From positions 3,670-67,669 of the forward strand of contig JAQWWH010000065.1 in assembly GCA_029255105.1 (NCBI GenBank): a stretch of DNA of 64,000 bases, given 5' to 3'. This DNA is from Flavimaricola sp. (GTDB lineage Bacteria > Pseudomonadota > Alphaproteobacteria > Rhodobacterales > Rhodobacteraceae). Below are positions 24,375 through 58,855 of the stretch, piece after piece. Made by a program: the position numbers and the translations under genes. The notes beneath the pieces are model-generated. The model was not told where the DNA came from, made no database searches, and worked only from the letters and a program-made list of their open reading frames with translations. Position 1 is the first letter of the stretch. Each line of letters opens with the position of its first letter.

Positions 24375-24413
24375 CACGCCCATCTGGGTAGAGTTCGGGG
24401 GATTTGCCCTGTG

Positions 24414-24461
24414 CAGAGGCCCGTCCAGAGGCCCGTCCGGTGGCTCGTCCAGAGGCCCGTC
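24414..24461. repeat. four tandem 12-bp units in the KS-to-PKS spacer
   Basis: CAGAGGCCCGTC at 24414, 24426 and 24450. The third unit (24438) is CGGTGGCTCGTC. Confidence 0.9.
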
Positions 24462-24499
24462 ACGGTATGTCACCAACAACAAGCAACAAAGGGGGCGGC

Positions 24500-31024: not shown

Positions 31025-31223
31025 GTGGCCAGTCGATAGATGTTTCGAGCTTCGATCAGGTCCTTCCCCGCTGGCGGCATATCCAACTTTTCTGAATTTG
31101 ATTCCTCGGGATATGTTCTATACCCTAAACGGTCGCCTTTGTCTTGTGTCGCCCACCCGAAGCTGAAACGTTCAGAATCGTGGTCTAGGGGCTAACGTTT
31201 TGGTGGGTTGGGACAATTTTGGC

Positions 31224-34200: not shown

Positions 34201-34910
34201 ACAATACCGGCGACGCCGCAGGCGACACCTTCCTGTCGATAGAACAGGTGCAGGGCACACAGCTGAGCGACGACCTGAGAGGCGACGCACTGGCCAACCG
34301 CCTGATCGGCGACGCGGGGCACGACACGCTTTATGGCCGCGCGGGCGATGACGTCCTGTTGGGTGGGGCTGGAAATGACATTCTGCTTGGCAACACCGGG
34401 GCGGACAGGATTGATGGCGGCACCGGCACCGACCGCGCCTCTTACTGGAACAGCACCGAGGGCATTCTGGCTGACCTGGCGACGGCGGGCCTGAACACCG
34501 GTGACGCTGCGGGGGACAGCTACAGTTCGATAGAAGATTTGCAAGGCACGGACTTTGACGACGATCTGCGAGGCGATAGCGGGGCGAACATCCTATACGC
34601 CGGGACAGGCAACGACACCCTGACAGGGCGCGACGGCAATGACAGATTGTTCGGAGGCGAAGGTGCCGATTCATTCGTTTTCAGCGCCGGCGCCGACGTC
34701 ATCCGGGATTTCGGCATGGCGGAAGGCGATCGCCTCCTCCTCGATGTGCTGGCATTGGGACTTGGCGGCCTGACAGGGGCCGAGATCGTGGCAACGTTTG
34801 CCGATGCATCCCCGACAAGGGTTGAGTTTGACTTTGGCAATGACAACCGCCTGACGCTTGAGGGGCTGACCGACCTGACGGATATCGAAAGCCGCCTGTT
34901 CCTGTTCTGA
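31224..34910 (+). CDS. sulfatase (formylglycine type) fused to a long RTX/hemolysin-type calcium-binding repeat region
   Basis: N-terminal MANIVVISVDDL...TPEAICNPARTSTFTGQ (CxPxR sulfatase signature) and WSDHGYHLGD. From about aa 524 onward, GGxGxDxUx nonapeptides and 6 longer super-repeats run to the C-terminus. Confidence 0.85.
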   Translation: MANIVVISVDDLAHWIGPNTVYSANVHTPNLKRLAEAGVTFENAYTPEAICNPARTSTFTGQDPNTTGVHANDQSWEEFVDPAITYPAHFLQAGWDVAGYGKNLHPFNIPAAIHEQLFSHYEVLGGYREDPPNTKFVQALPEGVDPDSLADHQTVNDAIRFLASQDPDKSFLLNLGLLKPHLDWIVPQEYFDLYPLEDIVVPGLVGDDMSNVPAFIRDQLQDSRKHPTPNSPDAAKVFMQGYLASVSYMDAELGRLLDVLDAGGNFDTTNIVLWSDHGYHLGDREGLWGKFTLWEEATKVPLIIKSAANDNPGTIVSDIVNLIDIYPTLTEMGGLTPPSHLEGDSLMPLVTGTGPANGDGISMTWMFGSVMMRTPQFAFMAYEDGSEELYDMLIDPDQLNNLALLPEFDGTRDALRETLVEKANIATGPIGTGQSDAFYLNQDGDIAQGLDGDDRYYVNADGVTICESPDEGRDIVYSTSSFALPDNVEDLIAPYYTTPDGIVLTGNGLNNVIIGSGSSEMLFGGAGDDTIRGGWGRADTIYGGDGNDAILGWVGADLIHGDSGNDIIRGIRGNDTIFGGEGDDTLIAGAGDNVLLYGGAGRDTLQADSGTAFLDGGAGADRLVANGGTGFASYRTATVGVRADMSDQRSNRGDAMGDSYRNLQGLVGSDHNDALTGDNADNHLIGMAGADRLLGKDGTDRAAYWASAEGVLADLRYIRFNTGDAMGDIYGSIEDLQGTAFADDLRGDSAANLLLGDAGNDTFFGRDGDDTLRGGDGDDFLVGNAGSDLLDGGSGHDWASYWNSAACIVADLQFTDLNQGDAAGDTYSSIEGLQGTEFDDDLRGNDLANLIYGGGNQDTLSGRGGDDTLQGADGDDTLVGGAGADRLQGGEGFDLASYLDSAEGVLADLARAAFNTGDAAGDIYSLIESLQGSQFNDDLRGDANANRILGGDGQDILLGRGGADILDGGTGTDRATYEDSLTGILADLGYAIHNTGDAAGDTFLSIEQVQGTQLSDDLRGDALANRLIGDAGHDTLYGRAGDDVLLGGAGNDILLGNTGADRIDGGTGTDRASYWNSTEGILADLATAGLNTGDAAGDSYSSIEDLQGTDFDDDLRGDSGANILYAGTGNDTLTGRDGNDRLFGGEGADSFVFSAGADVIRDFGMAEGDRLLLDVLALGLGGLTGAEIVATFADASPTRVEFDFGNDNRLTLEGLTDLTDIESRLFLF
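32793..34680 (+). repeat. coding RTX nonapeptide array organised in about 6 super-repeats
   Basis: Recurrent blocks A(S/A/T)Y(W)xSxEG(V/I)LADL....NTGDAAGDxYxSIExLQGTxFDDDLRGDxxAN. The blocks start near 33116, 33328, 33618, 33908, 34146 and 34437. Confidence 0.85.
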
Positions 34911-35066
34911 CGGACCGCATAAGGGCCACTGCCGTGACCGGCGAACAGGCAAAGCGGCAAGGCGAAGCCCCGCCCGTTTGCGACAACACCCTTGACCCGA
35001 CGGACCTGTAGCGGGACAGTTGTGCGGCCCCGGGGCCAACGCTGGTCTTCCGGGCGGAGCCTGAAC

Positions 35067-37457
35067 ATGGACACCCGTTTTCCAGGATCATCACGATTAT
35101 CCCGCGATGGGCTGATCGCCCGTATCGCCGGTCTCACATTCCCGGTCGTGGTGATCGACGCCCCGGCCGGAACCGGCAAATCGTGGCTGCTGGAGGATCT
35201 GTCCCGCGCCCTTGGCCTGCCGATATGGCAGGGCAGCACGGCACCGGCGGACCCTGCCCTGTGGGACGTGCCGCACCAGGAGCTGACGGGCCCCCTGCCC
35301 GACGACATCTCGCGCCTGATCCTTGCCAAGCGTCCTGCCACGGCGATCCCCGGCCTTGCCCGGGCCGAGGTCTATGGCAAGGTCGCCCGTCTGACCGGGA
35401 CTGACCTGCTGTTCGACGCGCCCGAAGTGCAATCAGGCTATGATCTGACCGAGGCAGAGGCAGAAGGCATCATTGCAAAGACCGGCGGCTGGCCCTGCCT
35501 GATGCCTGCCACGCAGGGTAGCGCCGCCATGGACGTGGCGCTGAGTGCGTTTCTGCGCGATGATCTTTTGCGGCCCTTGGCATCGGCCCGGCTTGTCGCA
35601 CTTGACGCAGCGCTAAAGGGCAAGGCTGTGGACCACGCCGCCCTTCAGGGCATCCCGTTTCTGGAAGACGGGACCGGTCCCGGCCCGCTTAACCTGCCGC
35701 TGACCCTACCACGGCCGCTGGCCGCCTGTGTCGGCCCCCTGCGCCGCGCCATCAGCGACCTGCTGGCAGAGCGTAGTCAGGACCCCACACAGGCCCGCGC
35801 CATCGCCACGGCGCTTGCGGCCATTGGCGAGCTGCCAGAGGCCATCAGCATCTTTCAGTCGCTGGGCGCATGGCAGGCGGCAAGCGACACGCTGCGACAG
35901 GCCCGCGGCCCCTTTGCGATCCATTTGTTCGGGTCAGAGGCACTTGACCGGATATTGGCAGGCTTCCCCCCCGACATGGCCCGGCAGGACGAGCTGATCG
36001 TGCATTGCCGGGCGATCCAGGCGATCAAGCGTGGCGATGTCTCGCTGACCCACCGCATCCTTCGGGACCGCTATGGGGACGAGGCCAACGATCCCCGCAA
36101 GGTGGTTGGCAATGCCCAGCGCTACAGCCTTGAGTTTCGGCTGTTCCGGGTTCTGCTGCAAACCTGGGAGGACATCGACCTTGACGCGCATCTGCTGGAC
36201 GACGCCTACCAGATGCTGGGCGAGCTTCCGGCGGATGACGACCTGCGGCGCGGGTCCTTCTACAACGCGGTCCTCGAATTCTACATCCGCGCCCGCCGCT
36301 TTGCCGAGGCCGATCATACGGCGGTCCTTGCTGGCGCCCATTATTCCCGCGCAAACGTCCCGATCCTGTCGTTCTACATTGATCTGCACCGGGCGATCAT
36401 CCAGCTGCTTCTGGGCGATGCCGGGACCGCCCGCAAGCGTGCGGCCAGTGCCGCCGCCCATATGGCGCGGGTGCCGTATGACAGTCCGGGCGATACCCGC
36501 CTGCTAGGCCTTTTGACCGCCTGCATTGCCTATGAGGGGGGCGAGGCAGAACCGCTAAGCCGGTTTCTGTCGCTTGACCTTGACGATCTGGCCAGTGGCG
36601 AGATCTGGCCAACCCTGATCGAAATGGTCCTGATCTACGGCAGTCAGGCTTTGGCCGAACATTATTCGACCGTCGCCGCCCGCAGCTTTCTCGACCGGTG
36701 GCGGGTCCGGCAGGAGCGATCGGACCAGTTCGGCATGTTGATCGACATCCGCGATATCGTCGTCCTGCAGAACGGCAATCGCTGGCAAGAGGCGATGGTC
36801 AAGGCCGCCGGGCTGGACACCCGGATCTCGCTGGCCTGGGTCGAGGAAGGTGGCCCCCGGCTGGCCACCTTGCAGGACCGGGACGAGGTTGCCCTGGCCC
36901 TCGTCTGGCTGCGCCATCTGGCGCAGGTCACACCGACACGGGCCCGGCTCGATCGCTGGATCGGCGGCATGCTCGACAATCCCCACCTGACCGGGCGGCA
37001 AAGGATCGGGGCCGAGGTTTGGCTGGCCCATGTCCTGCACCGCCAGCGCCGGCTCCCCGAGGCGCAGGCCCAGTTGCGCAAGACACTGTCGACCGCCGCC
37101 AGCCTTGGCAGCATCGCCACGCTTAGCGAAGAACGGGTCTTTCTGGCCGAACTCACCTCGACCCGACGCGTCAAGGACGGGTTGGAGCGGAATGACATAC
37201 TGCGCCGTGTCCTGCGCCAGGTGCAGGAGGCCGGACCCGGCCGGGCGCGGCGCGGCAAGGCCCATGGGCTGACCCGGCAGGAAACCCGCATCCTGCATGC
37301 CCTTGCTGAAGGGGCGACCAACAAGATGATCGCCAATATCATGGGGTTAAGCGAGGCGACGGTAAAGTTTCACCTGTCCAACCTGTACCGCAAGCTGGGC
37401 TGCGCCAACCGGAGCGAGGCGATCAGGTCGGCAGAGGCCCTGCGCATCGTGTCGTGA
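35067..37457 (+). CDS. large ATP-binding LuxR-family regulator (LAL/MalT-like)
   Basis: P-loop VVVIDAPAGTGKSWLL, a long helical middle region, and the C-terminal HTH LTRQETRILHALAEGATNKMIANIMGLSEATVKFHLSNLYRKLG. I chose the ATG at 35067. Confidence 0.8.
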   Translation: MDTRFPGSSRLSRDGLIARIAGLTFPVVVIDAPAGTGKSWLLEDLSRALGLPIWQGSTAPADPALWDVPHQELTGPLPDDISRLILAKRPATAIPGLARAEVYGKVARLTGTDLLFDAPEVQSGYDLTEAEAEGIIAKTGGWPCLMPATQGSAAMDVALSAFLRDDLLRPLASARLVALDAALKGKAVDHAALQGIPFLEDGTGPGPLNLPLTLPRPLAACVGPLRRAISDLLAERSQDPTQARAIATALAAIGELPEAISIFQSLGAWQAASDTLRQARGPFAIHLFGSEALDRILAGFPPDMARQDELIVHCRAIQAIKRGDVSLTHRILRDRYGDEANDPRKVVGNAQRYSLEFRLFRVLLQTWEDIDLDAHLLDDAYQMLGELPADDDLRRGSFYNAVLEFYIRARRFAEADHTAVLAGAHYSRANVPILSFYIDLHRAIIQLLLGDAGTARKRAASAAAHMARVPYDSPGDTRLLGLLTACIAYEGGEAEPLSRFLSLDLDDLASGEIWPTLIEMVLIYGSQALAEHYSTVAARSFLDRWRVRQERSDQFGMLIDIRDIVVLQNGNRWQEAMVKAAGLDTRISLAWVEEGGPRLATLQDRDEVALALVWLRHLAQVTPTRARLDRWIGGMLDNPHLTGRQRIGAEVWLAHVLHRQRRLPEAQAQLRKTLSTAASLGSIATLSEERVFLAELTSTRRVKDGLERNDILRRVLRQVQEAGPGRARRGKAHGLTRQETRILHALAEGATNKMIANIMGLSEATVKFHLSNLYRKLGCANRSEAIRSAEALRIVS

Positions 37458-46868: not shown

Positions 46869-48032
46869 TCAGTTTTTTGCGGCGAGTACTGTCGTGCACT
46901 CTGTCAAAGCGTCATCGAGTGTAGGCAATCTTGAAAATTCATCAGCGGCCTGTTCGGCGGCCATCTTTCTCTCAGGGGCATTTAGAACGTCCAAGATTCT
47001 TGAGCCAAGCATTCCAATATCCTGATCCTCTACCGTTATGCTCAGACCTGCTGCTGCCAAGCATCGGGCGTTGTCGGGTTGATCGGCAAACATTGGCACC
47101 ACAATCATCGGCACACCCGCGGCCAACCCTCCCAGAACGGTTCCGGAGCCGCCATGGCAGACCATCAAATCCACGTAGTTGAGCACCCATGCCTGATCTA
47201 CAAAGTCCCTCACGACAACGTTTTCGGGTACGTTCTTTATCAGATCGGGCGGTGCGTCCTTTCCAGTAGTCATAAGAACTGTAATCGGCAGATTTGCGAC
47301 TGCTTTCAGGCTTGCATCATAGATATGTCTGGCACGACCCTCGCCCGCGGTCACCGTCCCAAAGGTCATGTAAACCAAAGGTACGTTGCGATCCAGAAGC
47401 CATTCGGGGCGACCTGCCACTGGTACTTTGGGCAGCGCGGAGGTTCTGAAACGGTACGGTTCCCGACTGTTTATCCTCATAGTATCGTCGAGAACTTTGG
47501 GATGGGCGCTGAGGGCCGGTTCGTCTCTAAGGTAACCTTCTCCGATTGCAGGCAATGACACACTGGTTCGCAGCGCGTCCATTTCCGTCGCATAATTTGA
47601 AGCGATAGACTCTTCGGACTCGCCATTCACGATCTCGAAGCGGACATGATGGATGCCCAGTTTCTTGGCTGCGATCAAGCCTGCGAACTCGGTCGACTCG
47701 CGGAATAGCAGGTCAGGACGCCATTTCTCTAATTCCGTCAACAATCCGGGAATCGCAGAACGTGCCGCCAAGCCCATGAAGAATTGAGACATAAAGAGCT
47801 TGCCCTCGTCTTCACGCCTGACTTTTTGGGCCCGCCGGTTCAGGTCTTCAAACTCCGGATCTGTCCACCCATTGAACTCTAGATGATCAAAGCCATGCTT
47901 CCTGATTTCGGCACCAAGTTCAGGAACAGCCGCCACGCGAACATCATGGCCCCGTTCCTTCATCTTCTGTGCGATTGGCATCAAAGGAAGAAAATGGCTG
48001 ACCAGGGCGTTGGTTGTTACCAGAATTCGCAA
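46869..48032 (-). CDS. GT1-family (UDP-glycosyltransferase / MGT-like) glycosyltransferase
   Basis: MRILVTTNALVSHFLPLMPIAQKMKERGHDV and the C-terminal donor-binding motif CHGGSGTVLGGLAAGVPMIVVPMFADQPDNA. TTG start. G+C is visibly lower than in upstream genes. Confidence 0.8.
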   Translation of the reverse strand: MRILVTTNALVSHFLPLMPIAQKMKERGHDVRVAAVPELGAEIRKHGFDHLEFNGWTDPEFEDLNRRAQKVRREDEGKLFMSQFFMGLAARSAIPGLLTELEKWRPDLLFRESTEFAGLIAAKKLGIHHVRFEIVNGESEESIASNYATEMDALRTSVSLPAIGEGYLRDEPALSAHPKVLDDTMRINSREPYRFRTSALPKVPVAGRPEWLLDRNVPLVYMTFGTVTAGEGRARHIYDASLKAVANLPITVLMTTGKDAPPDLIKNVPENVVVRDFVDQAWVLNYVDLMVCHGGSGTVLGGLAAGVPMIVVPMFADQPDNARCLAAAGLSITVEDQDIGMLGSRILDVLNAPERKMAAEQAADEFSRLPTLDDALTECTTVLAAKN

Positions 48033-48775: not shown

Positions 48776-49053
48776 TTTTGACGGAGGTCCAGGTAGGCCT
48801 ACCCCCAATCGCGGGTTACCAGTATCGGACCAACGTCAAACCATCGCCCGCACCTCGGCCCGGGGTTGCGGGCGATGTCGTTTTGGCGGTCCAGATGATG
48901 AAGCCAAAGTGCTAACTCGCACCCTGCCCCGCCTCTGGCCAAATGACTCTGATATCAAGATTGGATACTCTGCAGTTCATGTGCAAAGATGAATTGCGAC
49001 TCTGGTCGCAATTAACCGGATTATCGCGTTGGAATAGCTGCGAGCGTGTCATT

Positions 49054-50556
49054 ATGCGAGAGACGTTTTTGTCGTCCGATACTGCGAAGCAGCACGTTGC
49101 AGATGTTTGCCTCATTTTGGAGGGGTCTTACCCCTTCGTGCAAGGCGGGGTGAGCAGTTGGTGCCACACGCTTATGCGTTCACTACCAGAGACGACATTC
49201 CATATTGTTTCGATCCAACCCTCCGACGCTGATCTGAAATCAAAATACGAGACTTTGCCGAATATAACGGGGCACACGACGATCGTATTCAAAGGAGAGC
49301 GTCAGCTGCCAAAGGCCTTGTTTCAGGGCAAGCGACCGCTTGCGGAATTGCTGCGCAAATCCTTTTTTGAGGCGTCTTTGGAGGATTTCGGGGATTTCGT
49401 AGCGTTGATGTCGACATCCAGCCATCAACAGCCCGTCAGCGATCGTGAATACTGGGATCTCACGCGCGAAATGTACGACAGCCTCGCACCTGCGACGTCC
49501 TTTCAGCAATTCTTCTGGGTCTGGCATTCGCTTCTGAACAGCGTGGCAGAGGTACTCAGCTGCCCGGCACCACCTGCACGGGTCTATCACACCATCTCAA
49601 CCGGGTACGCGGGACTGTTCGGAGCAGCCGCCCGGCAGCGGACCGGACGGCCCCTGCTTTTGACCGAGCATGGCATCTACACGAATGAGCGAACGGTCGA
49701 ACTTATGGCGTCCAGTGCCCTGCATGACAGCTTTGGGAACGCCCCGTATCTGTCGGATCACCGGCGGGATGCGCGGGATGTCTGGGTCCGGGCATTCGAG
49801 TGCATGGGGATCCTGTGCTACGAAAGCAGCGACCGGATCATCAGCCTCTCCCAAAGTGGCCAAACCGCGCAGCGCGGCCTAGGCGCTCCTTTCGAAAAGA
49901 CGCAGGTGATTGCCAATGGTATAGACCTTGATCGGTTCACAAGCATATCCCTCAAACCACCGGGTGGCCGCCAGATCATCACCTTTATCGGCCGTGTGGT
50001 GCGGATCAAGGACGTTGAGACGTTCATCCGGGCCATGGATATTGTGTTTAAGTCTGATCCCAACGTCGCGGCCTGGATCGTGGGGCCGGATGACGAAGAG
50101 CCGGACTACGCCCGTCAATGTTACAAACTGGTGTCGTCGCTTGGGATCGGAGAGCGGCTCGAGTTTCTGGGTATGCGCGAGGTGGTGCAGATCCTGGGAC
50201 AGGTGGACATGGTCGTCCTGACAAGCCTGAGCGAGGGTCAACCTCTTACTCTTTTAGAGGCGGGAGCTGCCGGATTGCCCTGTGTGGCCAGCGATGTTGG
50301 CAGTTGCCGTGACATTCTTCTGGGTGGCGATGCACCCGCCTCGGGGGGCTACGTGACCGCGCTTATGTCGCCTCAGGACACCGCGACAGCGATCCTGAAA
50401 CTGCTTGCCGATCCAGCAGACGCGCGGGCCAAAGGCGCTGCACTCAGGGCCCGCGTGTGCGAGAGCTACAGCCTCGACCTGATGCGCGAAGCCTATGCCG
50501 GTTTGTATCACAAGTATGCGAACGCCCCAACGTGTTCGGACCGGGCAAAGGTGTAA
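49054..50556 (+). CDS. pelF: Pel polysaccharide glycosyltransferase PelF (DUF3492 + GT4)
   Basis: VADVCLILEGSYPFVQGGVSSWCHTLMRSLPETTFHIVSI closely resembles the PelF N-terminal domain. The C-terminal GT4 motif is SLSEGQPLTLLEAGAAGLPCVASDVG. I chose the ATG at 49054. Confidence 0.85.
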   Translation: MRETFLSSDTAKQHVADVCLILEGSYPFVQGGVSSWCHTLMRSLPETTFHIVSIQPSDADLKSKYETLPNITGHTTIVFKGERQLPKALFQGKRPLAELLRKSFFEASLEDFGDFVALMSTSSHQQPVSDREYWDLTREMYDSLAPATSFQQFFWVWHSLLNSVAEVLSCPAPPARVYHTISTGYAGLFGAAARQRTGRPLLLTEHGIYTNERTVELMASSALHDSFGNAPYLSDHRRDARDVWVRAFECMGILCYESSDRIISLSQSGQTAQRGLGAPFEKTQVIANGIDLDRFTSISLKPPGGRQIITFIGRVVRIKDVETFIRAMDIVFKSDPNVAAWIVGPDDEEPDYARQCYKLVSSLGIGERLEFLGMREVVQILGQVDMVVLTSLSEGQPLTLLEAGAAGLPCVASDVGSCRDILLGGDAPASGGYVTALMSPQDTATAILKLLADPADARAKGAALRARVCESYSLDLMREAYAGLYHKYANAPTCSDRAKV

Positions 50557-50557
50557 C

Positions 50558-51976
50558 GTGGCGGGTATCGGATTCAGACTAGAACGGTTGGCGATCGAAG
50601 GCGGGCTCGCCGGCGGCCTGACGGCTGTCTTTACCGGAGCCCTTTTGGCGTCAGGGCATTGGCTCTTGACCATCTTCGGAGTCGGGGTAAGCGGCGCGGT
50701 CTCGCGCGCAATCGGAAGTCCGGACGTGGCAGAGGACTTCCGGCTCATCACGATCTACGTTTTTGCGATCGCCTCGATTGCAAGCGCGGCAGTCCTGCTG
50801 CCTGCCACCCGGTATTTTGCCGATGCGCTTTACAGTCGGGAACCGCAGAAAGCGCCAGATCTTCTTTTCGCCAGCTTCGTGATAACAGCTGCGTTTGCAG
50901 CACTTCTGGCCGTAATCGTCTTCGGCGTGATCCTTCGCCAACCGCAAGAAACGGTCTTCGTCGGCACCTTATACGCTGCGCTTGTCGCCATGATTTGGAC
51001 GGTTTCGACCTTTTGCAGCGCCGTGTTCGCAGTCCGCGGCGTGCTCCTGAGCTACTTTGTTGGCACCCTTGCCGGAGTTCTTGGGACCATCGCCGTCAGC
51101 CTGTGGATGGGCGAGGCAACGACAATGGCGCTGGCCTATGCCGCTGGGCTCGCGATCAGCCTTGGCGCGCTGACCGCCATATTTCTCGCGGCCTTCCCCT
51201 TTCCTAGGACGTCGATCAAGAGGGCTGTCAGAAACTTGTTCAAAAGCATGTCTCAGTTCCGGTACCTTTCAGGCGGTGCCTTCATGGGCACACTTGCGAT
51301 CTGGTCGAGTACACTTGTCATCTGGCTATCAGAGTATGGCGAGACCAATCCTTCGGGGTTCCGGGCAGCAGAGCTATACGACACGCCACATTTTTTTGGT
51401 CTCTTGGCGCTCATCCCGGGCTTTGCGCTTATTATCGTCTTCTTTGAGACCTCGGTCTTTCGGTCGCTCAAGCGGCATCACATTCTGATCGAGGGCCATG
51501 CCGCGCTTCAGGAACTCGAGATGTCAGCGAAGGAGTTGCAGGCAACGACAATGAGGGGGGTCACGATCCTTACCGCGATGCAGGTCGTGATTGCGACTGC
51601 ATTCGTTTTCGGGGCTCCGTTCTTGGCGGCGACGAACCTCCTTCAATTGCGTCAGGTCTCGGTCATGCAGATCGCCGCCTTGGGATCGGTCATGCACCTG
51701 ATCATCATCTTGTCGTCAATGGTGCTTATTTTTCTGGATGCGAGACGTCTGTTCTGTTTCGTGCAGGCCGCGTTTCTGTTCGGGACTGTCGTCGCCTCAC
51801 TGCTCGCGCTGCCGCTGGGGGACCGTTATTTTGGTTTTGGCTACCTTGCCGGCGCGTCCGTAGGCGCTTTGGCAGGGCTGCTCGCCGCCCAGTCCGTTCT
51901 GGCGCGTCTCAATGCGCACATATTCATGAGCGCGACGAGGGGTGGTCACTCCCGCGCGGGAAGGTTGCGGAGCTGA
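50558..51976 (+). CDS. pelG: Pel polysaccharide export membrane protein PelG
   Basis: A GTG at 50558, 1 nt after the pelF TAA, gives (M)AGIGFRLERL. This resembles the PelG N-terminus (MAGIGFEL...) as I recall it. About 12 TM segments. Confidence 0.8.
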   Translation: MAGIGFRLERLAIEGGLAGGLTAVFTGALLASGHWLLTIFGVGVSGAVSRAIGSPDVAEDFRLITIYVFAIASIASAAVLLPATRYFADALYSREPQKAPDLLFASFVITAAFAALLAVIVFGVILRQPQETVFVGTLYAALVAMIWTVSTFCSAVFAVRGVLLSYFVGTLAGVLGTIAVSLWMGEATTMALAYAAGLAISLGALTAIFLAAFPFPRTSIKRAVRNLFKSMSQFRYLSGGAFMGTLAIWSSTLVIWLSEYGETNPSGFRAAELYDTPHFFGLLALIPGFALIIVFFETSVFRSLKRHHILIEGHAALQELEMSAKELQATTMRGVTILTAMQVVIATAFVFGAPFLAATNLLQLRQVSVMQIAALGSVMHLIIILSSMVLIFLDARRLFCFVQAAFLFGTVVASLLALPLGDRYFGFGYLAGASVGALAGLLAAQSVLARLNAHIFMSATRGGHSRAGRLRS

Positions 51977-52998
51977 TTAACCGCATTCGCCCCTGCGGGG
52001 ATCGGGAGCGTCGGCCGCGCCAGGTCGCGGGGACCAAAGGTTCCCAATAGGCGGTTCTCTTGCAGCCGGTCCACGACGTAGCGTCTTTGCCCGGGATCAT
52101 TGACGTATTCGATCACAAGCACCGGAAGGCCATCGTTTGTCGCCAGCCTGAGCTGCCCGAGTGACCAGTTGACAAGACCTGGATCGTTCGGTCGCCCCTC
52201 CCCCCCGACACCGAAGAAAAGATCCTCTTTCACGATGGCGTCGATCGTGGATCGATATCCAGCATTGTCGAGGAGATCCTCGGCATTGTTCGGGATGACG
52301 AGGAAGCCGGGCGTCCGCGCCCGCGTGTAATTCGCGATCCGGTCCACCAGTACGTACATGTCCCTTTTGGAACGTTCGACGCGGTTCGGCCAGACCATGT
52401 ATTTGTCGACGCCATCCATGAACACGCCGTCAAAACCGACAGCGAGTATGCGGTCTAGAATGGAGCCTGGCGTCCCGAAAAGGATGGCCTGCCATTCAGC
52501 TTCCCAATAGGCGGTGTAGTAGTGGTTCGCCCAATCGGGGTTCTCGGCCCCCAACCAGCGGGGCGGGCGGGAGTTCCACTCGCTCCGCCAATAATCACGG
52601 TAAGTCTCGGCCTCACCGATGTTGATGTAGGCCACCACTGCCCGCCGGGACCCGTCCGGTTGGACCCTGAGCCGTTCGATGTCCATCCGGTCGATCCCCG
52701 TCGGATCGATAATGACAAGTTCCGTGTCAGAACGGTCGATGGCAGCAAGATTTGTATTGGTCAATTGAACCGAGAATTGCCGGATCTCGAGGTTTGTCGC
52801 CCGCATCATGCTGACCTCAGGAGAGGTGGTTTCAAGCAATGGTTGCACGACCTGATGGCTCGCATCACCGGAAGCGCTGGTCGTGTTGACGCATCCTGCG
52901 GCAATGGTGACGGCAACCAACGGCAAGACACCAACAAAGTCCCCGGCCCGCTCCCAAAGTCGCTTGAATTGAGTACCGACATCTATGTTCCAAGGCAC
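51946..52998 (-). CDS. GH114 / TM1410-family glycoside hydrolase (PelA hydrolase-domain-like), exported, possibly a lipoprotein
   Basis: VVAYINIGEAETYRDYWRSEW...AVGFDGVFMDGVDKY are family motifs. The N-terminal hydrophobic segment ends in IAAGC. GTG start. Its 3' end overlaps pelG by 31 nt. Confidence 0.7.
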   Translation of the reverse strand: MPWNIDVGTQFKRLWERAGDFVGVLPLVAVTIAAGCVNTTSASGDASHQVVQPLLETTSPEVSMMRATNLEIRQFSVQLTNTNLAAIDRSDTELVIIDPTGIDRMDIERLRVQPDGSRRAVVAYINIGEAETYRDYWRSEWNSRPPRWLGAENPDWANHYYTAYWEAEWQAILFGTPGSILDRILAVGFDGVFMDGVDKYMVWPNRVERSKRDMYVLVDRIANYTRARTPGFLVIPNNAEDLLDNAGYRSTIDAIVKEDLFFGVGGEGRPNDPGLVNWSLGQLRLATNDGLPVLVIEYVNDPGQRRYVVDRLQENRLLGTFGPRDLARPTLPIPAGANAVNQLRNLPARE

Positions 52999-53280
52999 GG
53001 GCGTTGCTCCGATCGTTTCGGTGTGCGCGCTGCCCGGCCGAGGCTTGTCAGCACGTGTGAACTACATGTGGTAGAAACATAAGTGGTATAGGCCCTGGTG
53101 CCAACGTCCATCCTATCACTATACTATTAGCTCCCACTATCTTTCGGACCGGTCATTGGCCGAAAACCCGGGCGCATTGCGTTCCATGACAAATGTCTTG
53201 AGGAAAGCCTGCTCAAACAGGGTTTTGGGCAACTGTCTGGCGTATTGTCAAAGCCACCGACCTTCCCTCATTGTGGCGGC

Positions 53281-53937
53281 CTACTCCGTGCTGCTGATTT
53301 GATTAAGGAGTGCCTGAAATTGCTGTCGTGCAACCGGGTCGATGAGCTCGCCATTGTCGTCCAGTGTTCGGTAAACTCTCAGGCTCGCCTCGAGATCGCC
53401 GTTTGCTGCAAGAAGCGCCGCGTAGCGTTGCCCTGCGGCGAGGTCGAGGCTCTCTTCGTTCCAGAGCGCGGCGAGGAACCTGAGTTCTGTTTCCGTGTCG
53501 CGCCCTGCGCGAAGCCAGCCCGCGACATAGCGTTGTTCTTCCTCGGTCAGATTATGCGGAGGCAGAGCCAGAAAAAGCGCGATCGCCTGCTCGGGTCTGG
53601 CCATCGAAAGGTGGTGCCTTGCAAGATCATGGATCGCCGCCTGCGAGCCACCGCTGGTTTCCAATCGTTCTTGCAAAGTCGTTTCGGCGGCGTCGGTCAG
53701 GCCCATATGGGTCTGGATCAATGCCAGAACCCATGCTGACCGCTCGTCCAACGGCGCCTCGGCCCGTGCGGCCTCTGCTGCCACAAGGGCAGCCTCGGGG
53801 TTACCGTCTCTCAATAGAAACCAAGCGTGATCTGTGCGGCCCGGCACCAGCAGGATTGCTGCAAGCCCCAGCGTAGCCGCCAGGATCACAACGAAAAATC
53901 CGCCGCCCATACGCATCAAACTCTTTATTCCCGGCAT
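53281..53937 (-). CDS. membrane-anchored TPR-like helical-repeat protein
   Basis: 218 aa. One N-terminal TM (GGGFFVVILAATLGLAAILLV), then Ala/Leu-rich helical repeats. The upstream gene's 3' end overlaps this gene's 5' end by 13 nt. Confidence 0.55.
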   Translation of the reverse strand: MPGIKSLMRMGGGFFVVILAATLGLAAILLVPGRTDHAWFLLRDGNPEAALVAAEAARAEAPLDERSAWVLALIQTHMGLTDAAETTLQERLETSGGSQAAIHDLARHHLSMARPEQAIALFLALPPHNLTEEEQRYVAGWLRAGRDTETELRFLAALWNEESLDLAAGQRYAALLAANGDLEASLRVYRTLDDNGELIDPVARQQFQALLNQISSTE

Positions 53938-56192
53938 CGAATGGTGAGGGCGGTCGTCTGGTCGATGGCGGTCGGTAACCTGACATCCAGTTGACCGTTC
54001 TCGGTCATCACGTCCTCATCCACCATAATCCCACCATCCCTTCTGGCAACCACATTGACCTTGGGGGCGTCAATTCCGTCGATCCGAATAAGGCCGGCGC
54101 CAAAGCCCTTGGCCGTGATGTCGATATCGCATCCATCGACGGCAAAGCGCGTGACCTCCCAACTGGCTTCAATCAGGTTCGGGACCAGGCTATCTGGCTC
54201 TGAATTGGTCAGTTTCAGGCGTGGGGTCTCGTTGCCGGGATCCAGACTCACATAAAGCGCATCACCGATCATTCGCTGTCCGATCACGCCCGAACTCGAT
54301 GAGAAATCCACCCTGAGTGCGCCTGGCCGGTCTATCCGAAGAGTCTGGAGGCCTCCTCTATCGCCGATCGTCCATTCGTTCTCGCCGGTCCTTGTGATCT
54401 CGGCGGAATAGAACCCATTGGCGACATCGATATAGCGCGAGGGGAATACATGAATGAACTCGTCCGACGCGGCCACTCCATAAAGATGGACGATCGCTTC
54501 GAGGCTCGCATACCGCTCACCAGTAAAGCTATGGTAATAAATGTCGAACGGCTTCAGTCGCCTTGGGGCACCCGTGTGCTTCACCGTCTCTTCGACCAGG
54601 CGCATTGCGTGGTAGTTCTGGGTCCAGCCATCGGTGTAGGTGTTGTCGTTGGCGTTGCCCGAATAGATTTGCCAATAGGCGCCAACAGGTCGTCCGACGG
54701 GCGACACATAGGCCATTGAGGGAAATTGATTGTCGAAGCGACTATCGCCCCCGTTGATATTGCGGATCCCGGCCGCGACAGTGCCCGCCATCGCCTCTGG
54801 GAAAGGGCGTGTGTCTCCGGTCCAGTAATAGACCTGTGCGGTCTTTCCTTCGGGCGCGAGCGAATTGGCGCGCGCAATGGCCCCATCAATCTCTTCCGCG
54901 AGGGTAAACGGCCGCTGAAGGTAAGCGCGCGGAAGGAAGATGTCGTATGTCAACAGCGCTGCAAGGCTCGTGTTATCCTGCTCTCCCCCGAACCATTGAA
55001 ACAGATCGTCGATGGGAGCGCCTTCCAGCTCCTGTATCTGTTCATCGACGAGGTCGAGTTCGGCCTGACGGTCGTACTCCCGGAAATACCACCAGTAGAA
55101 CGGATGGGTGTATCCATGCACAGCGATTTCGACGTTCGGCAACGCAAAGGCCTCACGTGCCAAACGGGTTGCATCTTCACTCGCACCGAAAGCGGGATCA
55201 ACGTCGGCGCCAATGACCCCGACACCGACCGGAATCTCTGGATAGGCCCGCAAGAGGTGTTCGTTGACGATCTCGGCCGAGAGCGGCCGTTCATTCCACG
55301 GCAACGGGATCTCGGACACATTGTTCCAGCCGTCACCATCAATATGACTGAAAAAGATCCGGCGTCCCGAAAGCGTCGTTGTGTCGGGTACGGGCCGAAC
55401 CTCAAGGTCAAAGGCCCGTTCAAAAAAGGCGAATGGATCGACAAGCCATTGAACCCGGTTGAGTTCGGGTAGCAAACAAATAGCGTAGTTCGCGTGGGCA
55501 AAGCCCCCGGCGTCGCTGATCGTGACAAGGCTGCTTTCGCCTTTGTCGCCCTCCAGACCAGAACGAAGTGTCAAATAGCTCGTAACATCTTCTCTTGTCG
55601 GGACCAGAACCGGAAACGGCGGCAGCACTGCATCAGGCGAGCATTCGAAACCAACGACGTCCTCGTCAAAGTGAGAGACGGAGGCGTCGAATGTTACCAA
55701 CACGAAGTCGCGTTGCGCCAAACCATGAATTTCATAGAAATCGTTGGCGACAGCCTCGCCGCCGGACGCGGGCATGCCAGATAGGCCCATGGATGCGATG
55801 GGGATGCCCCGCTGCCATGCCTCGCGCATCCAGGCAAGGTAGGGTTCGGGCTGTGCCACAGGTTCCCGAAACCACGAGACGACATAGTCGGACCGGAAAT
55901 CCGACCAGTCGGGCATACCTTGCGCGACATCCCAGTAAGTGAGCCTCAAACCCATGTGATTGAGGGGAAGCTCGAGGAAGCGGTGGACGTAAGTTTCCGC
56001 CACGCTCTCCTCGTGCACACTATCGTACAGGGCGAGGACATCCCGACCCGCAGACTGCGCTAAAGCCGCTGGCGGCAAACAGATCGACGATAAGACGAGG
56101 ATCAGCCTCGCACACAATGTGGGCAGCCAGAGGACAGATCGCTGATTTTCGCGGACTGAATACGAGCGCATCGAAATAGGTTGGACCATCAT
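53925..56192 (-). CDS. exported multidomain protein with a polysaccharide deacetylase (CE4)-like core (PelA deacetylase-domain-like)
   Basis: Signal peptide LILVLSSICLPPAALAQ. FFSHIDGDGWN (Asp-Asp metal motif context) and IAVHGYTHPFYW (HxxH-type motif) are CE4-like. 755 aa. Confidence 0.6.
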   Translation of the reverse strand: MMVQPISMRSYSVRENQRSVLWLPTLCARLILVLSSICLPPAALAQSAGRDVLALYDSVHEESVAETYVHRFLELPLNHMGLRLTYWDVAQGMPDWSDFRSDYVVSWFREPVAQPEPYLAWMREAWQRGIPIASMGLSGMPASGGEAVANDFYEIHGLAQRDFVLVTFDASVSHFDEDVVGFECSPDAVLPPFPVLVPTREDVTSYLTLRSGLEGDKGESSLVTISDAGGFAHANYAICLLPELNRVQWLVDPFAFFERAFDLEVRPVPDTTTLSGRRIFFSHIDGDGWNNVSEIPLPWNERPLSAEIVNEHLLRAYPEIPVGVGVIGADVDPAFGASEDATRLAREAFALPNVEIAVHGYTHPFYWWYFREYDRQAELDLVDEQIQELEGAPIDDLFQWFGGEQDNTSLAALLTYDIFLPRAYLQRPFTLAEEIDGAIARANSLAPEGKTAQVYYWTGDTRPFPEAMAGTVAAGIRNINGGDSRFDNQFPSMAYVSPVGRPVGAYWQIYSGNANDNTYTDGWTQNYHAMRLVEETVKHTGAPRRLKPFDIYYHSFTGERYASLEAIVHLYGVAASDEFIHVFPSRYIDVANGFYSAEITRTGENEWTIGDRGGLQTLRIDRPGALRVDFSSSSGVIGQRMIGDALYVSLDPGNETPRLKLTNSEPDSLVPNLIEASWEVTRFAVDGCDIDITAKGFGAGLIRIDGIDAPKVNVVARRDGGIMVDEDVMTENGQLDVRLPTAIDQTTALTIRCRE

Positions 56193-56248
56193 TCTCTTGA
56201 TTCAAATAACGAATCGCCAAAAGCTAACACGCGTGGGGAGAATTGGTT

Positions 56249-57175
56249 ATGACAAAGTCGACATTCGGCCACCAACCAGCATTGCGCGCCGTTGCATATA
56301 GCATACTGACCCTGATTGTTCTTTACGGGGTGCCCTGGCTGCTTTGGGGCGAGATCGGCTACGAAGCTGCTACATTTCATCCTATGCTGATCGTTTGTGC
56401 GGTAGCTGCGGCGTATCACGGCGTTGTGTCCGGCCTGACCGTTCTCGCTTTGTTGATTGCTCCATATGCGGCATTTGACGTGCCTTCGCGGGGGGTCGAC
56501 GAGATGCTTCACCTCTATTCTCTGCAGGTTCTTTTCTGGCCTGCCCTCTCTGCAATTGCGGTCGCAATATTCGGAAGTGTCCGAGACCTGCGCGAAGGAG
56601 AACTCTCAGCTGCCCGGTCAACCATCGACCGGCTTCGTGGCGACCTCACAATGGTACAAAAGGCGGCTGACGCTGCACTCCTAGCGCTCAAGCGGAACGA
56701 GGCCGAGATTGCGATGCGCGGGGATATGACACCCTTGGTGGTGATCAAAGCCCTCAAGCGGCTAAGCAAATCCGAACCAACCAGCTTCGCCGGAGATCTT
56801 GAACGGGTCTTTTGGCTTATCGCGCCGTCTGCAGACTTTGTCCTTTTCTCCGGCGACGCTGAGCCGATTGCAGCCTCTTCCAACATTCGTTCAATCACGA
56901 TTGATCAAATGCGTCGCTCCATTTCGAGCGCGTCTGCCGAGGGCGTCGTCTTGAAACCGGCGGCAAAGCAAGGCTTTGACCCAGAGGCCATGACAATTGT
57001 GGCTTACCGGGCCAACTGCAAACCCGAGCTTGTGTTTTGCGTTGCTTGCCGAAACGACATGGAGGCCGACGAAATCATGGAGTATCTGCCGGAGGTCAGC
57101 GAGGCGATCGGCAAAACGGCCAGTTCGATAAAGCCCAAGCGACGTTCAAAACCATTCAAGCAAGCAGTGGCATGA
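56249..57175 (+). CDS. 4-TM membrane protein with coiled-coil and a cytoplasmic domain; possible short PelD analogue
   Basis: About 308 aa. Four N-terminal TM helices, a coiled-coil at ELSAARSTIDRLRGDLTMVQKAADAALLALKRNEAE, then an alpha/beta-looking region of about 150 aa. It is divergent from the deacetylase gene (56-bp spacer). The PelD link is based on topology and context only. Confidence 0.45.
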   Translation: MTKSTFGHQPALRAVAYSILTLIVLYGVPWLLWGEIGYEAATFHPMLIVCAVAAAYHGVVSGLTVLALLIAPYAAFDVPSRGVDEMLHLYSLQVLFWPALSAIAVAIFGSVRDLREGELSAARSTIDRLRGDLTMVQKAADAALLALKRNEAEIAMRGDMTPLVVIKALKRLSKSEPTSFAGDLERVFWLIAPSADFVLFSGDAEPIAASSNIRSITIDQMRRSISSASAEGVVLKPAAKQGFDPEAMTIVAYRANCKPELVFCVACRNDMEADEIMEYLPEVSEAIGKTASSIKPKRRSKPFKQAVA

Positions 57176-57744
57176 TCCCGTTGGCCCCGGTTTTCATCCT
57201 GGTAAGCGGAGGTCTTTGGACCGCGACCTTTATGGCAGCGAGCAGCAACCAACAGATCGCTTTCGTTTATTTCGGCATCATCGTCCTTTCAGCACTTGTC
57301 CGCTTTAGCGTGGACGAGGCCGAAGCCCTCGACTGGTATCTCTTGCCGATTGCCTTGCTGGGGCCACTTGGCGTTATCGCAGCCACAACGACATACATCA
57401 CTGGAAGGTTTCACAGTATCGAAGGCGAGCAGCTCAAGGAATGGTATGAAGAGCTTCGAGGAGACCCGGATGCCATGCTTCCCCGGAACTTTGCAAACGA
57501 CGTTTCCCTTGGTCGCATAAGCCCGCAAGCTTCCGCCAGCATGCGCTCTGCGGTCGAGATTTTCCGTGAAGGAACATTTCAGGACCGCCAGAAGGTGCTT
57601 TTGTGGATTGCCCGGCGCAAAGACCCCGCACTGAAATCGCTGCTAGAGCATGCGATCCGTTGCGATGACACGATCATTCGTAGCCAGGCGGCGTCTTTAA
57701 TCGTGCACTTCGAGACCACTGCCCGCTCCCGTCCCGCTGAATAG
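57172..57744 (+). CDS. small polytopic membrane protein with a helical C-terminal domain; possible PelE analogue
   Basis: About 190 aa. Its ATG overlaps the upstream TGA (ATGA). 3 TM, then a helical tail KVLLWIARRKDPALKSLLEHAIRCDD. The call is from context only. Confidence 0.4.
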   Translation: MIPLAPVFILVSGGLWTATFMAASSNQQIAFVYFGIIVLSALVRFSVDEAEALDWYLLPIALLGPLGVIAATTTYITGRFHSIEGEQLKEWYEELRGDPDAMLPRNFANDVSLGRISPQASASMRSAVEIFREGTFQDRQKVLLWIARRKDPALKSLLEHAIRCDDTIIRSQAASLIVHFETTARSRPAE

Positions 57745-58855
57745 CCCCACTAAGCGGTCCCTGTCCGGGCTCAAAAAGGGCAGAGCTGAGCCTCGAAGTT
57801 TTGGGCTCTACAATGATCGGGCGTGGATCATCCGCCCCTGACGTATCGACGCCAACTTCCTGACTGTAATAGCGCCAGCTGCTCCGACACATTTCGGCAA
57901 GCCCTTGCTCTGCCTCGAAGCCGAGGATTTGTTTTGCCTGCCTTATGTCGGCATAGGAAACCGCAGCGTCCCCCGCCCGGCGATCGACAATGCGATACGG
58001 CAAATTCCGACCAACCGCGCGGCCGTAGGCCTCCAGCATCTCCAAGACGCTGTATCCCCGCCCGGTGCCGAGGTTCACAAGATGGCTTTGTTTATCGCGC
58101 AGAAGCGCCTTGAGAGACAACGCATGGCCCTTCGCGAGATCAATCACATGGATGTAGTCGCGGATCGCTGTGCCATCCCTTGTTGAATAGTCGCCGCCAA
58201 AAACCTTCAGCTCATCGAGCTGACCAGTCGCCACCCTGGCAAGGACGGGAACAAGGTTGCTTGGGGGTTGGGCGGGCGCCTCACCAATCACGCCCGATGG
58301 ATGCGCACCGACGGGGTTGAAATAACGCAGAACACCTACCCTCATTTCGGGGTGGGCCCGGGCCACGTAACGAATGAAATCCTCAGCCGCACGTTTGGTT
58401 TCCGCATAGGCGTTCAGCGGCGCCAAAGGAGTGGTTTCCGCAATTGGCACATTTGTCGTCGCACCATAGACAGCCGCGCTTGAGGAAAACACGAGGTTCC
58501 GCACCCCGGCACCCCGCATGCCGTCAATCAGGTTCACGAGACCCACGACGTTGCTACGGTAGTAACCGATTGGATTGGTTTCGCTTTCGGGAACACTTTT
58601 GCGCGCGGCGAAATGCACAACGGCGTCGAAATGGGCCGAACCCAATACCGCCTTGATACTATCGTAATCCCGCAGGTCACATCTGATGATGCGTGGCGCC
58701 TCGCCTACCAGCGACGCTAGTCGATCAGGTATATCCTCGCTCGCATTCTCAAAGTTATCGACGATCCAAACATCATAACCCGTTTCCACGAGTTTCACGT
58801 AGGTGTGAGAGCCGATGAACCCGGCTCCGCCGGTCAGTAGAATACGTTCCCGCAT
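57674..58855 (-). CDS. galE: UDP-hexose 4-epimerase (GalE family) with a C-terminal extension of about 55 aa
   Basis: LLTGGAGFIGSH and the catalytic YAETKRAAED. The typical GalE end lies near ...MCRSSWRYYSQ, followed by a low-complexity tail that overlaps the convergent gene by 71 nt. Confidence 0.85.
   Translation of the reverse strand: MRERILLTGGAGFIGSHTYVKLVETGYDVWIVDNFENASEDIPDRLASLVGEAPRIIRCDLRDYDSIKAVLGSAHFDAVVHFAARKSVPESETNPIGYYRSNVVGLVNLIDGMRGAGVRNLVFSSSAAVYGATTNVPIAETTPLAPLNAYAETKRAAEDFIRYVARAHPEMRVGVLRYFNPVGAHPSGVIGEAPAQPPSNLVPVLARVATGQLDELKVFGGDYSTRDGTAIRDYIHVIDLAKGHALSLKALLRDKQSHLVNLGTGRGYSVLEMLEAYGRAVGRNLPYRIVDRRAGDAAVSYADIRQAKQILGFEAEQGLAEMCRSSWRYYSQEVGVDTSGADDPRPIIVEPKTSRLSSALFEPGQGPLSGAIQRDGSGQWSRSARLKTPPGYE

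Follow-up and report, generated by a model that had tools for sequence, protein, structure and literature searches.

The window analysed here is a stretch of 64,000 nucleotides (64 kb) from the marine alphaproteobacterium Flavimaricola sp. (Rhodobacteraceae; contig JAQWWH010000065.1). Between positions 49054 and 58855 it carries an eight-gene cluster of the Pel exopolysaccharide type with all reading frames intact (Table 1). Judged from sequence families, the assignment is firm for six of the eight genes and indirect for the other two. The cluster is probably a functional alphaproteobacterial Pel variant that was reduced from a complete operon and whose polymer would leave the periplasm via an unlinked or non-dedicated outer-membrane component. 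Four features of the canonical Gram-negative system are missing: the bifunctional PelA, the PelB barrel, PelC and a GGDEF-containing PelD. A preliminary description of this DNA had proposed a Pel-like locus with a split architecture and no outer-membrane export genes. Family matches and negative tblastn searches of the window uphold this, and every element that had been listed was found in its place. No published description was found that ties pelF, pelG or pelDEFG to Rhodobacterales, Roseobacter, Azospirillum, Hyphomicrobium or Pseudovibrio. The architecture is regarded as undescribed, within a known Pel pathway and not as a new kind of system.

PelF, PelG and the epimerase

The Pel-type synthase is represented by pelF and pelG, which had been described as clear homologues in translational adjacency and are confirmed as such. 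PelF matches the NCBIfam equivalog NF038011 (E = 1.6e-119, 400 bits with a cutoff of 100) and combines an N-terminal DUF3492 domain (PF11997, 2.7e-66) with a GT4 domain (Glyco_trans_1_4) in Pfam. PelG matches PF16933 at 1.3e-69 over profile positions 2-452 of 452. Read directly at the junction, the stop codon of pelF occupies 50554-50556 and the GTG start codon of pelG lies at 50558, leaving a gap of one nucleotide.

At the other end, the cluster is closed by a GalE-family epimerase, as had been proposed (TIGR01179, 3.2e-110, 368 bits). Its nearest PDB entry is 3enk from Burkholderia (2.8e-99), and both this entry and human GALE (5e-89) are closer than E. coli GalE. A PelX-type epimerase was also considered, and no PelX-named entry occurred among the 32 PDB matches at E <= 1e-40, all of which were GalE-named or GAL10. 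In the alignment, Ser300 sits where 3enk has Cys, a position which we take to be the substrate-gating position of known GalE enzymes. The gating residue is Cys in human GALE (C307) and Tyr299 in E. coli, and a small residue admits UDP-N-acetylglucosamine and UDP-N-acetylgalactosamine (UDP-GalNAc). GalE is thus a probable supplier of UDP-GalNAc by sequence, and a functional analogy with PelX via Ser300 is plausible. As a side observation, every Rhodobacterales copy of GalE carries a poorly conserved C-terminal extension of about 30-65 residues (codons 57674-57860 in the window), and the galE reading frame shares 71 nucleotides with the 3' end of pelE' on the opposite strand.

Deacetylase and hydrolase

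The 755-amino acid (aa) protein PelA' has no match in Pfam or NCBIfam. In a phmmer search, its residues 54-679 align with residues 261-839 of PelA from Pseudomonas thermotolerans (PDB 9cgy, E = 3.1e-57). This span covers all of PelA except the N-terminal GH166 hydrolase domain, and the mature N-terminus begins at the alpha/beta domain. The AlphaFold model of PelA' (predicted local distance difference test score, pLDDT, of 68 from an 11-sequence alignment) has 9cgy as its top Foldseek match, with 5.2e-39 over 719 columns, the next match being at 4e-6. Six residues, H283, D285, D287, H359, H363 and H554, do not vary among 11 homologues, the most distant of which is 36% identical, and align with H515/D517/D519/H589/H593/H750 of PtPelA, which are named in PMC12022489. 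The CE21 motifs HxDxD (MT1) and HxxxH (MT2) and the catalytic-acid His are all present, and the MT4 Glu corresponds to Asp514. The signal peptide is of the cleavable Sec type and ends in ALA-QS. From alignment and model, PelA' is assigned as a hydrolase-less PelA with a CE21 deacetylase. A bifunctional PelA with GH166 and CE21 is not present, and the CE21 part alone is retained. The earlier call of an exported, CE4-like deacetylase is therefore kept with regard to export and predicted activity, and corrected with regard to the family: CE21 was founded on the deacetylase domain of PelA and is only distantly related to CE4.

The hydrolase gene faces pelG convergently on the opposite strand. Its product matches TIGR01370 (MJ1477/TM1410) with 193 bits at a cutoff of 181 and PF03537 at 1.5e-23. 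The best PDB matches are the TM1410 entries 9eux, 9euz and 2aam at about 3e-32, and the PDB sequence search detected no similarity to the hydrolase domain of PelA. A detached PelA hydrolase domain (GH166) was considered as its origin and rejected on these matches. The catalytic residues Asp156 and Glu225 of TmGH191 (PMC12054363) align with D195 and E258, and the protein is assigned by sequence to GH191 with its Asp/Glu catalytic pair. It had been described as a separate GH114/TM1410-type gene; the TM1410 family and the separate gene stand, and the family is now GH191 instead of GH114. TmGH191 itself showed no activity, and activity has been demonstrated for a single GH191 enzyme, which is distantly related (PMC12054363). 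In the four of four full-length homologues compared, the hydrophobic N-terminal segment ends in a lipobox-like Cys (IAAGC, VVAGC, ICAAC, IIAGC), and the hydrolase is therefore predicted to be a lipoprotein. Thus, the two activities of PelA are divided between a GH191 gene and the CE21 gene pelA', as the preliminary description had it.

Reduced PelB-, PelD- and PelE-like proteins

A short membrane-anchored tetratricopeptide repeat (TPR) protein had been said to stand in the place of PelB, and this is borne out. The protein has one transmembrane helix at residues 13-31, weak matches to TPR_19 (1e-6) and TPR_14, and no barrel; pelA' overlaps or abuts its gene. Protein families built from six Rhodobacterales-like loci were compared by hhalign with the corresponding proteins of other Alphaproteobacteria, and four cross-family comparisons that served as controls all stayed below 1% probability. 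The TPR family matches the TPR proteins encoded next after pelA' in other Alphaproteobacteria with a probability of 99.0% (E = 4.7e-18) over 218 columns from the membrane helix onwards, so that it aligns with the first approximately 220 residues, helix and TPRs, of these longer proteins. In Pseudomonas aeruginosa, residues 1-36 of PelB are an inner-membrane helix (PMC12022489). A word-indexed search with the TPR alignment gave 13 matches and was swamped by generic TPR proteins. An exhaustive profile search with the family matched the N-termini of proteins of 219-1611 aa; the four longest matches that were checked (931-1611 aa) were all-TPR with no detectable PelB barrel and did not connect the family directly with a fused PelB.

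The two small membrane proteins had been noted as divergently transcribed and left anonymous. Both genes exist and diverge from pelA'. A good Shine-Dalgarno sequence precedes pelD', and the ATG of pelE' overlaps the stop codon of pelD' (ATGA, read directly at the junction). Neither protein matches a Pfam or NCBIfam family, and PelD' has four close relatives among 5.8 billion clustered proteins. In the hhalign comparison with proteins encoded between pelA' and pelF in other Alphaproteobacteria, the PelD' family matches the PelD family with a probability of 98.3% (E = 1.4e-14) over columns 15-212, an alignment that runs from the four membrane helices via the coiled coil into the beginning of the GAF domain. 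The PelE' family matches alphaproteobacterial PelE with 99.0% (E = 3.2e-18), and blastp links PelE' to a Hyphomicrobiaceae PelE at 2.7e-8. The two proteins are assigned on these profiles as reduced PelD and PelE homologues. With both homologues present, no member of the predicted inner-membrane synthase set is missing, and the set is therefore not minimal.

The AlphaFold model of PelD', based on a 5-sequence alignment, has a pLDDT of 57 and an unreliable membrane part, while its C-terminal alpha/beta domain (165-298) reaches 70-88. The nearest Foldseek folds to this model were GAF, roadblock and LuxR-LBD at E >= 0.02, none of them significant, and phmmer searches of PelD' and the TPR protein against the PDB returned nothing useful. 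PelD' ends where PelD of Azospirillum runs on for about 150 aa. This tail carries an RDTD motif of the RxxD type, and Azospirillum PelD gives marginal PDB matches only, with E values of 0.2-0.6 to the GGDEF region of WspR. By this alignment, PelD' is devoid of the GGDEF domain with its I-site that binds cyclic di-GMP (c-di-GMP). Lacking this domain, activation therefore cannot use the known c-di-GMP-PelD mechanism. A riboswitch or other known RNA was sought as a substitute for PelD-based control, and a search of the window from 46 to 64 kb against Rfam yielded nothing at E <= 1.

Export components in the window and in related loci

The PelC and PelB components were searched for by tblastn with Azospirillum queries. 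Neither PelC nor the barrel protein bearing PF24604 had a match in the 64-kb window, PelC also having none in the non-Azospirillum loci described below, so the earlier statement that no PelC-like lipoprotein gene is present holds. Scanning the rest of the window for export genes revealed no Wza, PelB, PelC or TolC-type gene; the genes met were ABC transporters, hydantoinase-type enzymes, a type III polyketide synthase (PKS) set, an HlyD/ABC-2 pair and an RTX-sulfatase. As PelC and the PelB barrel are missing from the locus, passage through the outer membrane is therefore not encoded in it.

The architecture could be taken as peculiar to this genome, and this is not the case. The eight-gene module also occurs in Citreimonas salinaria (PelA' 70% identical), on the chromosome of Jannaschia ovalis (63%) and in four metagenomic lineages (53-98%). 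Best matches to Citreimonas and Jannaschia place the window among Roseobacteraceae-like Rhodobacterales. It is therefore lineage-wide, with at least six Rhodobacterales-like contexts and different flanks each time. In J. ovalis, galE is not adjacent and the module adjoins lpxB, lpxI, lpxA, fabZ, skp and bamA; the host is therefore diderm. The ratio of nonsynonymous to synonymous substitutions (dN/dS) against three homologous loci of 53-98% protein identity is 0.08-0.34 for all eight genes, including those for the TPR protein, PelD' and PelE', which indicates that the module is maintained by selection. A decaying pseudo-operon was rejected because of these ratios and the intact reading frames. 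On a JGI metagenome contig, one copy is bracketed by genes for 234-aa IS6/IS240-family transposases (L086: 1651-2355, 13954-14658, 15221-15925; L087) and adjoins resolvase, phage terminase and ParB-methylase genes. From its sequence, this copy looks like a mobile cassette resembling a composite transposon.

A scan with the PelA' alignment, using one genome per GTDB species, yielded 391 relatives, of which the best 80 loci were gene-mapped. Azospirillum PelC, barrel protein and PelD tail were then used as tblastn queries across 85 related loci. All three were found in 8/8 Azospirillum loci and in no other of the 85. Neither the window nor 55 other loci with pelA', pelF and pelG contain any of them; these loci belong to four families and were covered for up to about 10 kb on either side of pelA'. 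The barrel, PelC and the GGDEF-like PelD tail are thus present or absent together.

In Azospirillum, the gene order is galE, GH191, pelA', an anchored TPR protein of about 1000 aa, a 579-aa TPR-barrel protein, PelC, tailed pelD, pelE and pelF. PelB is split there (L072 12228-17600 and seven others): the anchored protein is all-TPR, and the separate 579-aa protein that follows has a signal peptide, TPRs and a C-terminal PelB-type barrel (PF24604, 2.4e-6) and ends in ...SLVWRY. The PelC homologue matches PDB 9h80_C at 2.3e-14. Hyphomicrobiaceae loci have the order pelA', an anchored TPR protein of about 500 aa, pelD with GAF only, pelE, pelF and pelG, usually with one to three GH191 genes downstream. 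Their TPR protein has one helix, is all-alpha with a proline- and arginine-rich tail and has no barrel. Xanthobacteraceae show the same order with a TPR protein of about 310 aa, and Pseudovibrio encodes a 272-aa TPR protein and has pelDEFG divergent from pelA'. In lineages without barrel, PelC and tail, the anchored TPR protein becomes progressively shorter, down from about 1000 aa in Azospirillum to 500, 310, 270 and 210 aa. It was also observed that many Hyphomicrobiaceae loci carry two to three tandem GH191 paralogues 3' of pelG on the opposite strand (L011, L012, L036, L046, L052, L059, L064, L065, L071).

A second, porin-less Rhodobacterales pel type, with PelA' about 29% identical, is located on plasmids of Cereibacter azotoformans, C. 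sphaeroides and Paracoccus liaowanqingii. Its PelD consists of membrane helices and coiled coil only (189-226 aa). In the two loci that were mapped in detail, those of C. azotoformans (L091, NZ_CP089967, 1757-17642) and P. liaowanqingii (L092/L093, NZ_CP040764), the pelD'-pelE'-pelF-pelG unit is headed by a co-transcribed gene of about 500 aa that resembles outer-membrane polysaccharide export (OPX) proteins. The product combines a Poly_export domain with an N-terminal helix and a long coiled coil; Poly_export scores above the Pfam cutoff in Cereibacter and just below it in Paracoccus, where a weak SLBB match is also found. The same OPX-type gene lies 3' of pelG in one Hyphomicrobiaceae metagenome-assembled genome (L062 18693-20168). 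The Cereibacter locus further encodes a 485-aa GH191 hydrolase fused to five RTX calcium-binding repeats (L091 3317-4774, minus strand). Its sequence suggests a type I-secreted Pel hydrolase and hence an extracellular polymer. In Paracoccus, the gene annotated as galE encodes a 749-aa protein that resembles a hydrolase-epimerase fusion.

Comparison with known systems

With pelABCDEFG of P. aeruginosa, the cluster shares PelF, PelG, a CE21 PelA with mixed alpha/beta and beta-rich domains, PelD- and PelE-like partners and a helix-TPR protein encoded after pelA. It differs in that PelA lacks the GH166 domain, the alpha-rich and barrel parts of PelB as well as PelC are missing, the GGDEF domain with its RxxD I-site is absent from PelD, and PelD and PelE, at 308 and 190 aa, are far shorter. 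While the Pseudomonas genes form one operon, the genes here run in three transcription directions and include a separate GH191 lipoprotein and galE.

The gene content resembles that of Bacillus cereus ATCC 10987, where pelDEA(DA)FG is accompanied by pelA(H) and galE (PMC7112168). Shared are PelD, PelE, a deacetylase-only PelA, PelF, PelG, a separate hydrolase and galE, and neither set has an outer-membrane component. Streptococcal PelD is also without GGDEF, whereas B. cereus PelD binds c-di-GMP, for which PelD' has no domain. The B. cereus genes form a contiguous operon in a monoderm and PelA(DA) is anchored to the membrane N-terminally, whereas the host here is diderm and PelA' has a cleavable signal peptide. 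In addition, the PelB-binding alpha/beta domain is kept here, an anchored TPR protein is present and the hydrolase belongs to GH191. Relatives of each protein tested were alphaproteobacterial or metagenomic. The preliminary description had characterised the locus as a Gram-positive-style minimal Pel machine in a diderm. The gene content does mirror pelDEA(DA)FG, but the Sec signal, the alpha/beta domain, the PelB-N-like protein and the alphaproteobacterial relatives make this an analogy and not a lineage, and the set is not minimal.

Among the alphaproteobacterial relatives, the pel operon of Azospirillum (L055, L067, L069, L070, L072, L074, L084, L085) is complete. It shares the split of PelA into GH191 and a hydrolase-less PelA' (38-39% identity), as well as galE and the N-terminal 220 or so residues of the TPR protein. 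However, it keeps the TPR protein of about 1000 aa, the TPR-barrel protein, PelC and the RxxD tail of about 150 aa on PelD, none of which is found here. An architectural parallel exists in the type III cellulose systems that are known from alpha-proteobacteria and cyanobacteria, in which the TPR-only BcsK replaces the TPR-porin BcsC, no porin is encoded nearby and the export route is described as unknown (PMC8892547). These systems are likewise synthase-dependent and diderm and have a TPR-only protein in place of a TPR-porin, but polymer and synthase differ, and the likeness drawn here is one of architecture.

Gene layout and surroundings

With start codons taken from gene calls in homologues, several reading frames become shorter; the adopted starts are 49054 (pelF), 50558 (pelG), 53910 (TPR gene), 56171 (pelA') and 57172 (pelE'). 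In order, pelF and pelG are transcribed forward, the GH191, TPR and pelA' genes in reverse, pelD' and pelE' forward and galE in reverse. Promoter and terminator scans performed no better than on shuffled sequence. An exact-sequence look-up of PelA' and a megablast search of the locus against plasmids gave no match.

Table 1. Genes of the Pel-type cluster with positions in the window, strands, product lengths and predicted products
Gene	Position	Strand	Length (aa)	Predicted product and features	Family
pelF	49054..50556 (longest ORF from 48943)	+	500	Cytoplasmic GT4 glycosyltransferase, polymerase	NF038011
pelG	50558..51976 (GTG start)	+	472	Polytopic inner-membrane protein, MATE-like PelG family	PF16933
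GH191 (TM1410-family) hydrolase	51946..52998	-	350	Predicted lipoprotein, predicted endo-alpha-1,4-(N-acetyl)galactosaminidase	TIGR01370
PelB-N-like TPR protein	53281..53937 (probable start 53910)	-	209-218	Inner-membrane helix and short periplasmic TPR domain	
pelA'	53925..56192	-	748-755	Hydrolase-less exported PelA; mixed alpha/beta, CE21 deacetylase and beta-rich domains	
pelD'	56249..57175	+	308	Four transmembrane helices, coiled coil, small GAF-like domain, no GGDEF	
pelE'	57172..57744	+	190	Two to three transmembrane helices and helical cytoplasmic domain	
galE	57674..58855	-	393	UDP-hexose 4-epimerase with non-conserved C-terminal tail of about 60 aa	

For related contigs that are 95% and 91% identical in nucleotide sequence, the alignment with the window starts at position 48521, to the left of the cluster, and continues to the window end. 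Left of this point, the window carries a macrolide-type GT1 glycosyltransferase gene (46869-48032), and the 95% contigs (L089, L090) carry extracytoplasmic function (ECF) sigma, anti-sigma and DUF7282 genes; contig L088 extends only about 100 bases beyond the breakpoint. Near 46 kb of the window, the GC content falls from about 0.65 to about 0.57. Further away, positions 21994-27400 encode two ketosynthase-like proteins (373 and 420 aa), a chalcone-synthase-like type III PKS (392 aa) and an FAD (flavin adenine dinucleotide) oxidoreductase, preceded by an HlyD and ABC-2 exporter (18331-21349). A 1236-aa protein with an N-terminal sulfatase and about ten RTX repeats, which is probably a type I secretion substrate, is followed by an 821-aa LuxR-family regulator (31200-37457).

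Proposed pathway and alternative explanations

From family membership, the following pathway is proposed. GalE would make UDP-GalNAc, which PelF would polymerise in an inner-membrane complex with PelD', PelE' and PelG, and this complex would pass the chain into the periplasm. There, the exported PelA' would partially de-N-acetylate the chain through its CE21 domain, and the lipid-anchored GH191 endo-galactosaminidase would trim deacetylated stretches. Since PelA' keeps both the alpha/beta and the deacetylase domain, its gene abuts or overlaps the TPR gene and PelB starts with a helix, the short TPR protein is proposed as an inner-membrane platform on which PelA' probably docks, in line with the gene adjacency and the Pseudomonas PelA-PelB interaction. 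The cluster would have arisen by reduction from an Azospirillum-type operon of galE, GH191, pelA', anchored TPR, TPR-barrel, pelC, tailed pelD, pelE, pelF and pelG. Given the canonical pel operons in Gamma- and Betaproteobacteria, loss from a complete operon is considered likeliest.

The polymer would then exit via an unlinked or non-dedicated outer-membrane component, for which an OPX/Poly_export-type protein is the best candidate class. In view of the OPX genes in plasmid and Hyphomicrobiaceae loci, the RTX-tagged GH191 and the BcsK precedent, the most attractive hypothesis is a conduit of the OPX type or another non-dedicated one. More tentatively, it is possible that a large alphaproteobacterial clade, comprising the Roseobacteraceae-like module in the window, Hyphomicrobiaceae, Xanthobacteraceae, Pseudovibrio and the Paracoccaceae plasmids, runs Pel without the PelB porin, PelC and c-di-GMP binding by PelD, and that the polymer reaches the surface by a route new to Pel, such as a recruited OPX/Poly_export-coiled-coil protein. 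If true, this route would be a hybrid of synthase-dependent and Wza-type export and a parallel to BcsK-type cellulose.

Several points weigh against a functional, exporting Pel variant. The identity of the polymer as Pel is a prediction from sequence families. No direct sequence match of PelD', PelE' or the TPR protein to PelD, PelE or PelB of Pseudomonas was obtained, so that the tie of these three to Pel runs entirely via alphaproteobacterial intermediates and synteny, and the GAF domain of PelD was not among the top 50 Foldseek matches to the PelD' model. Loss rather than gain is argued by parsimony only. No OPX gene lies in the module or within the 64 kb, and the search for unlinked pelB, pelC and OPX genes covered the 64-kb window and about 10 kb on either side in the relatives.

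The range of this search also bears on the idea that a PelB barrel and PelC are encoded elsewhere in the genome and that the system is an ordinary Pel system with scattered genes, and Azospirillum shows that a split PelB exists in the clade. This explanation is nevertheless improbable: in Azospirillum the barrel and PelC lie inside the operon in 8/8 loci and they are missing from the DNA covered (up to about 10 kb on either side of pelA') at all 55 other loci, the stepwise shrinkage of the TPR protein from about 1000 to 210 aa is hard to fit with bridging to a distant barrel, and the module moves as a unit, with one copy bracketed by IS6 elements. A chemically different polysaccharide, for which the family names would be misleading, is very improbable. 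PelF and PelA' are about 20-40% identical to characterised proteins, the only GH191 enzyme of demonstrated activity is a distant relative, and TmGH191 itself showed none, which leaves room for such a polymer. However, four independent components, namely the PelF equivalog, the CE21 residue set, GH191 and a GalE with a small gatekeeper, all point to a polymer of alpha-1,4-linked GalNAc and galactosamine.

It is also conceivable, though rather unlikely, that the polymer stays in the periplasm or associated with the envelope, or that it is released only as GH191-trimmed oligomers via general porins or vesicles. The loss of the barrel, PelC and the c-di-GMP switch would then reflect a change of function, for example to envelope conditioning instead of a biofilm matrix. 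This would agree with the lack of a dedicated outer-membrane component in the module in any context, with a lipoprotein hydrolase under strong constraint (dN/dS 0.08-0.23) and with the joint presence or absence of the export parts and the GGDEF-like tail across the 85 loci. Yet the deacetylase and the anchored TPR scaffold, which are export-coupled in Pseudomonas, are retained and conserved, and related porin-less loci encode an OPX-type protein and a GH191 enzyme that carries RTX repeats and is probably secreted, which points to an extracellular polymer. The preferred reading is a reduced Pel variant whose polymer would be exported through an unlinked or non-dedicated component.

Implications

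Previous surveys did not bring this architecture to light. One survey used PelC as a BLAST probe (PMC7890745) and another was restricted to full-length PelA homologues (PMC12022489); with such probes, this clade is excluded by construction. A 2020 operon catalogue recorded Pseudovibrio sp. FO-BEG1 with only PelF, PelG and PelA.

Current models of synthase-dependent export in diderms need a TPR-porin and, for Pel, also PelC and c-di-GMP on PelD, and the module described here is without all three. It is conserved, under selection and apparently mobile. Together with its relatives it forms a natural series from the complete system of Azospirillum via the reduced loci of Hyphomicrobiaceae and Xanthobacteraceae to the minimal ones of Pseudovibrio and Rhodobacterales. 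This series could be used to address the role of the PelB TPRs without a barrel, the switching of Pel without c-di-GMP and the crossing of the outer membrane. Pel-type matrix may also have been counted too low for marine Rhodobacterales and for Hyphomicrobiales of soil and wastewater.

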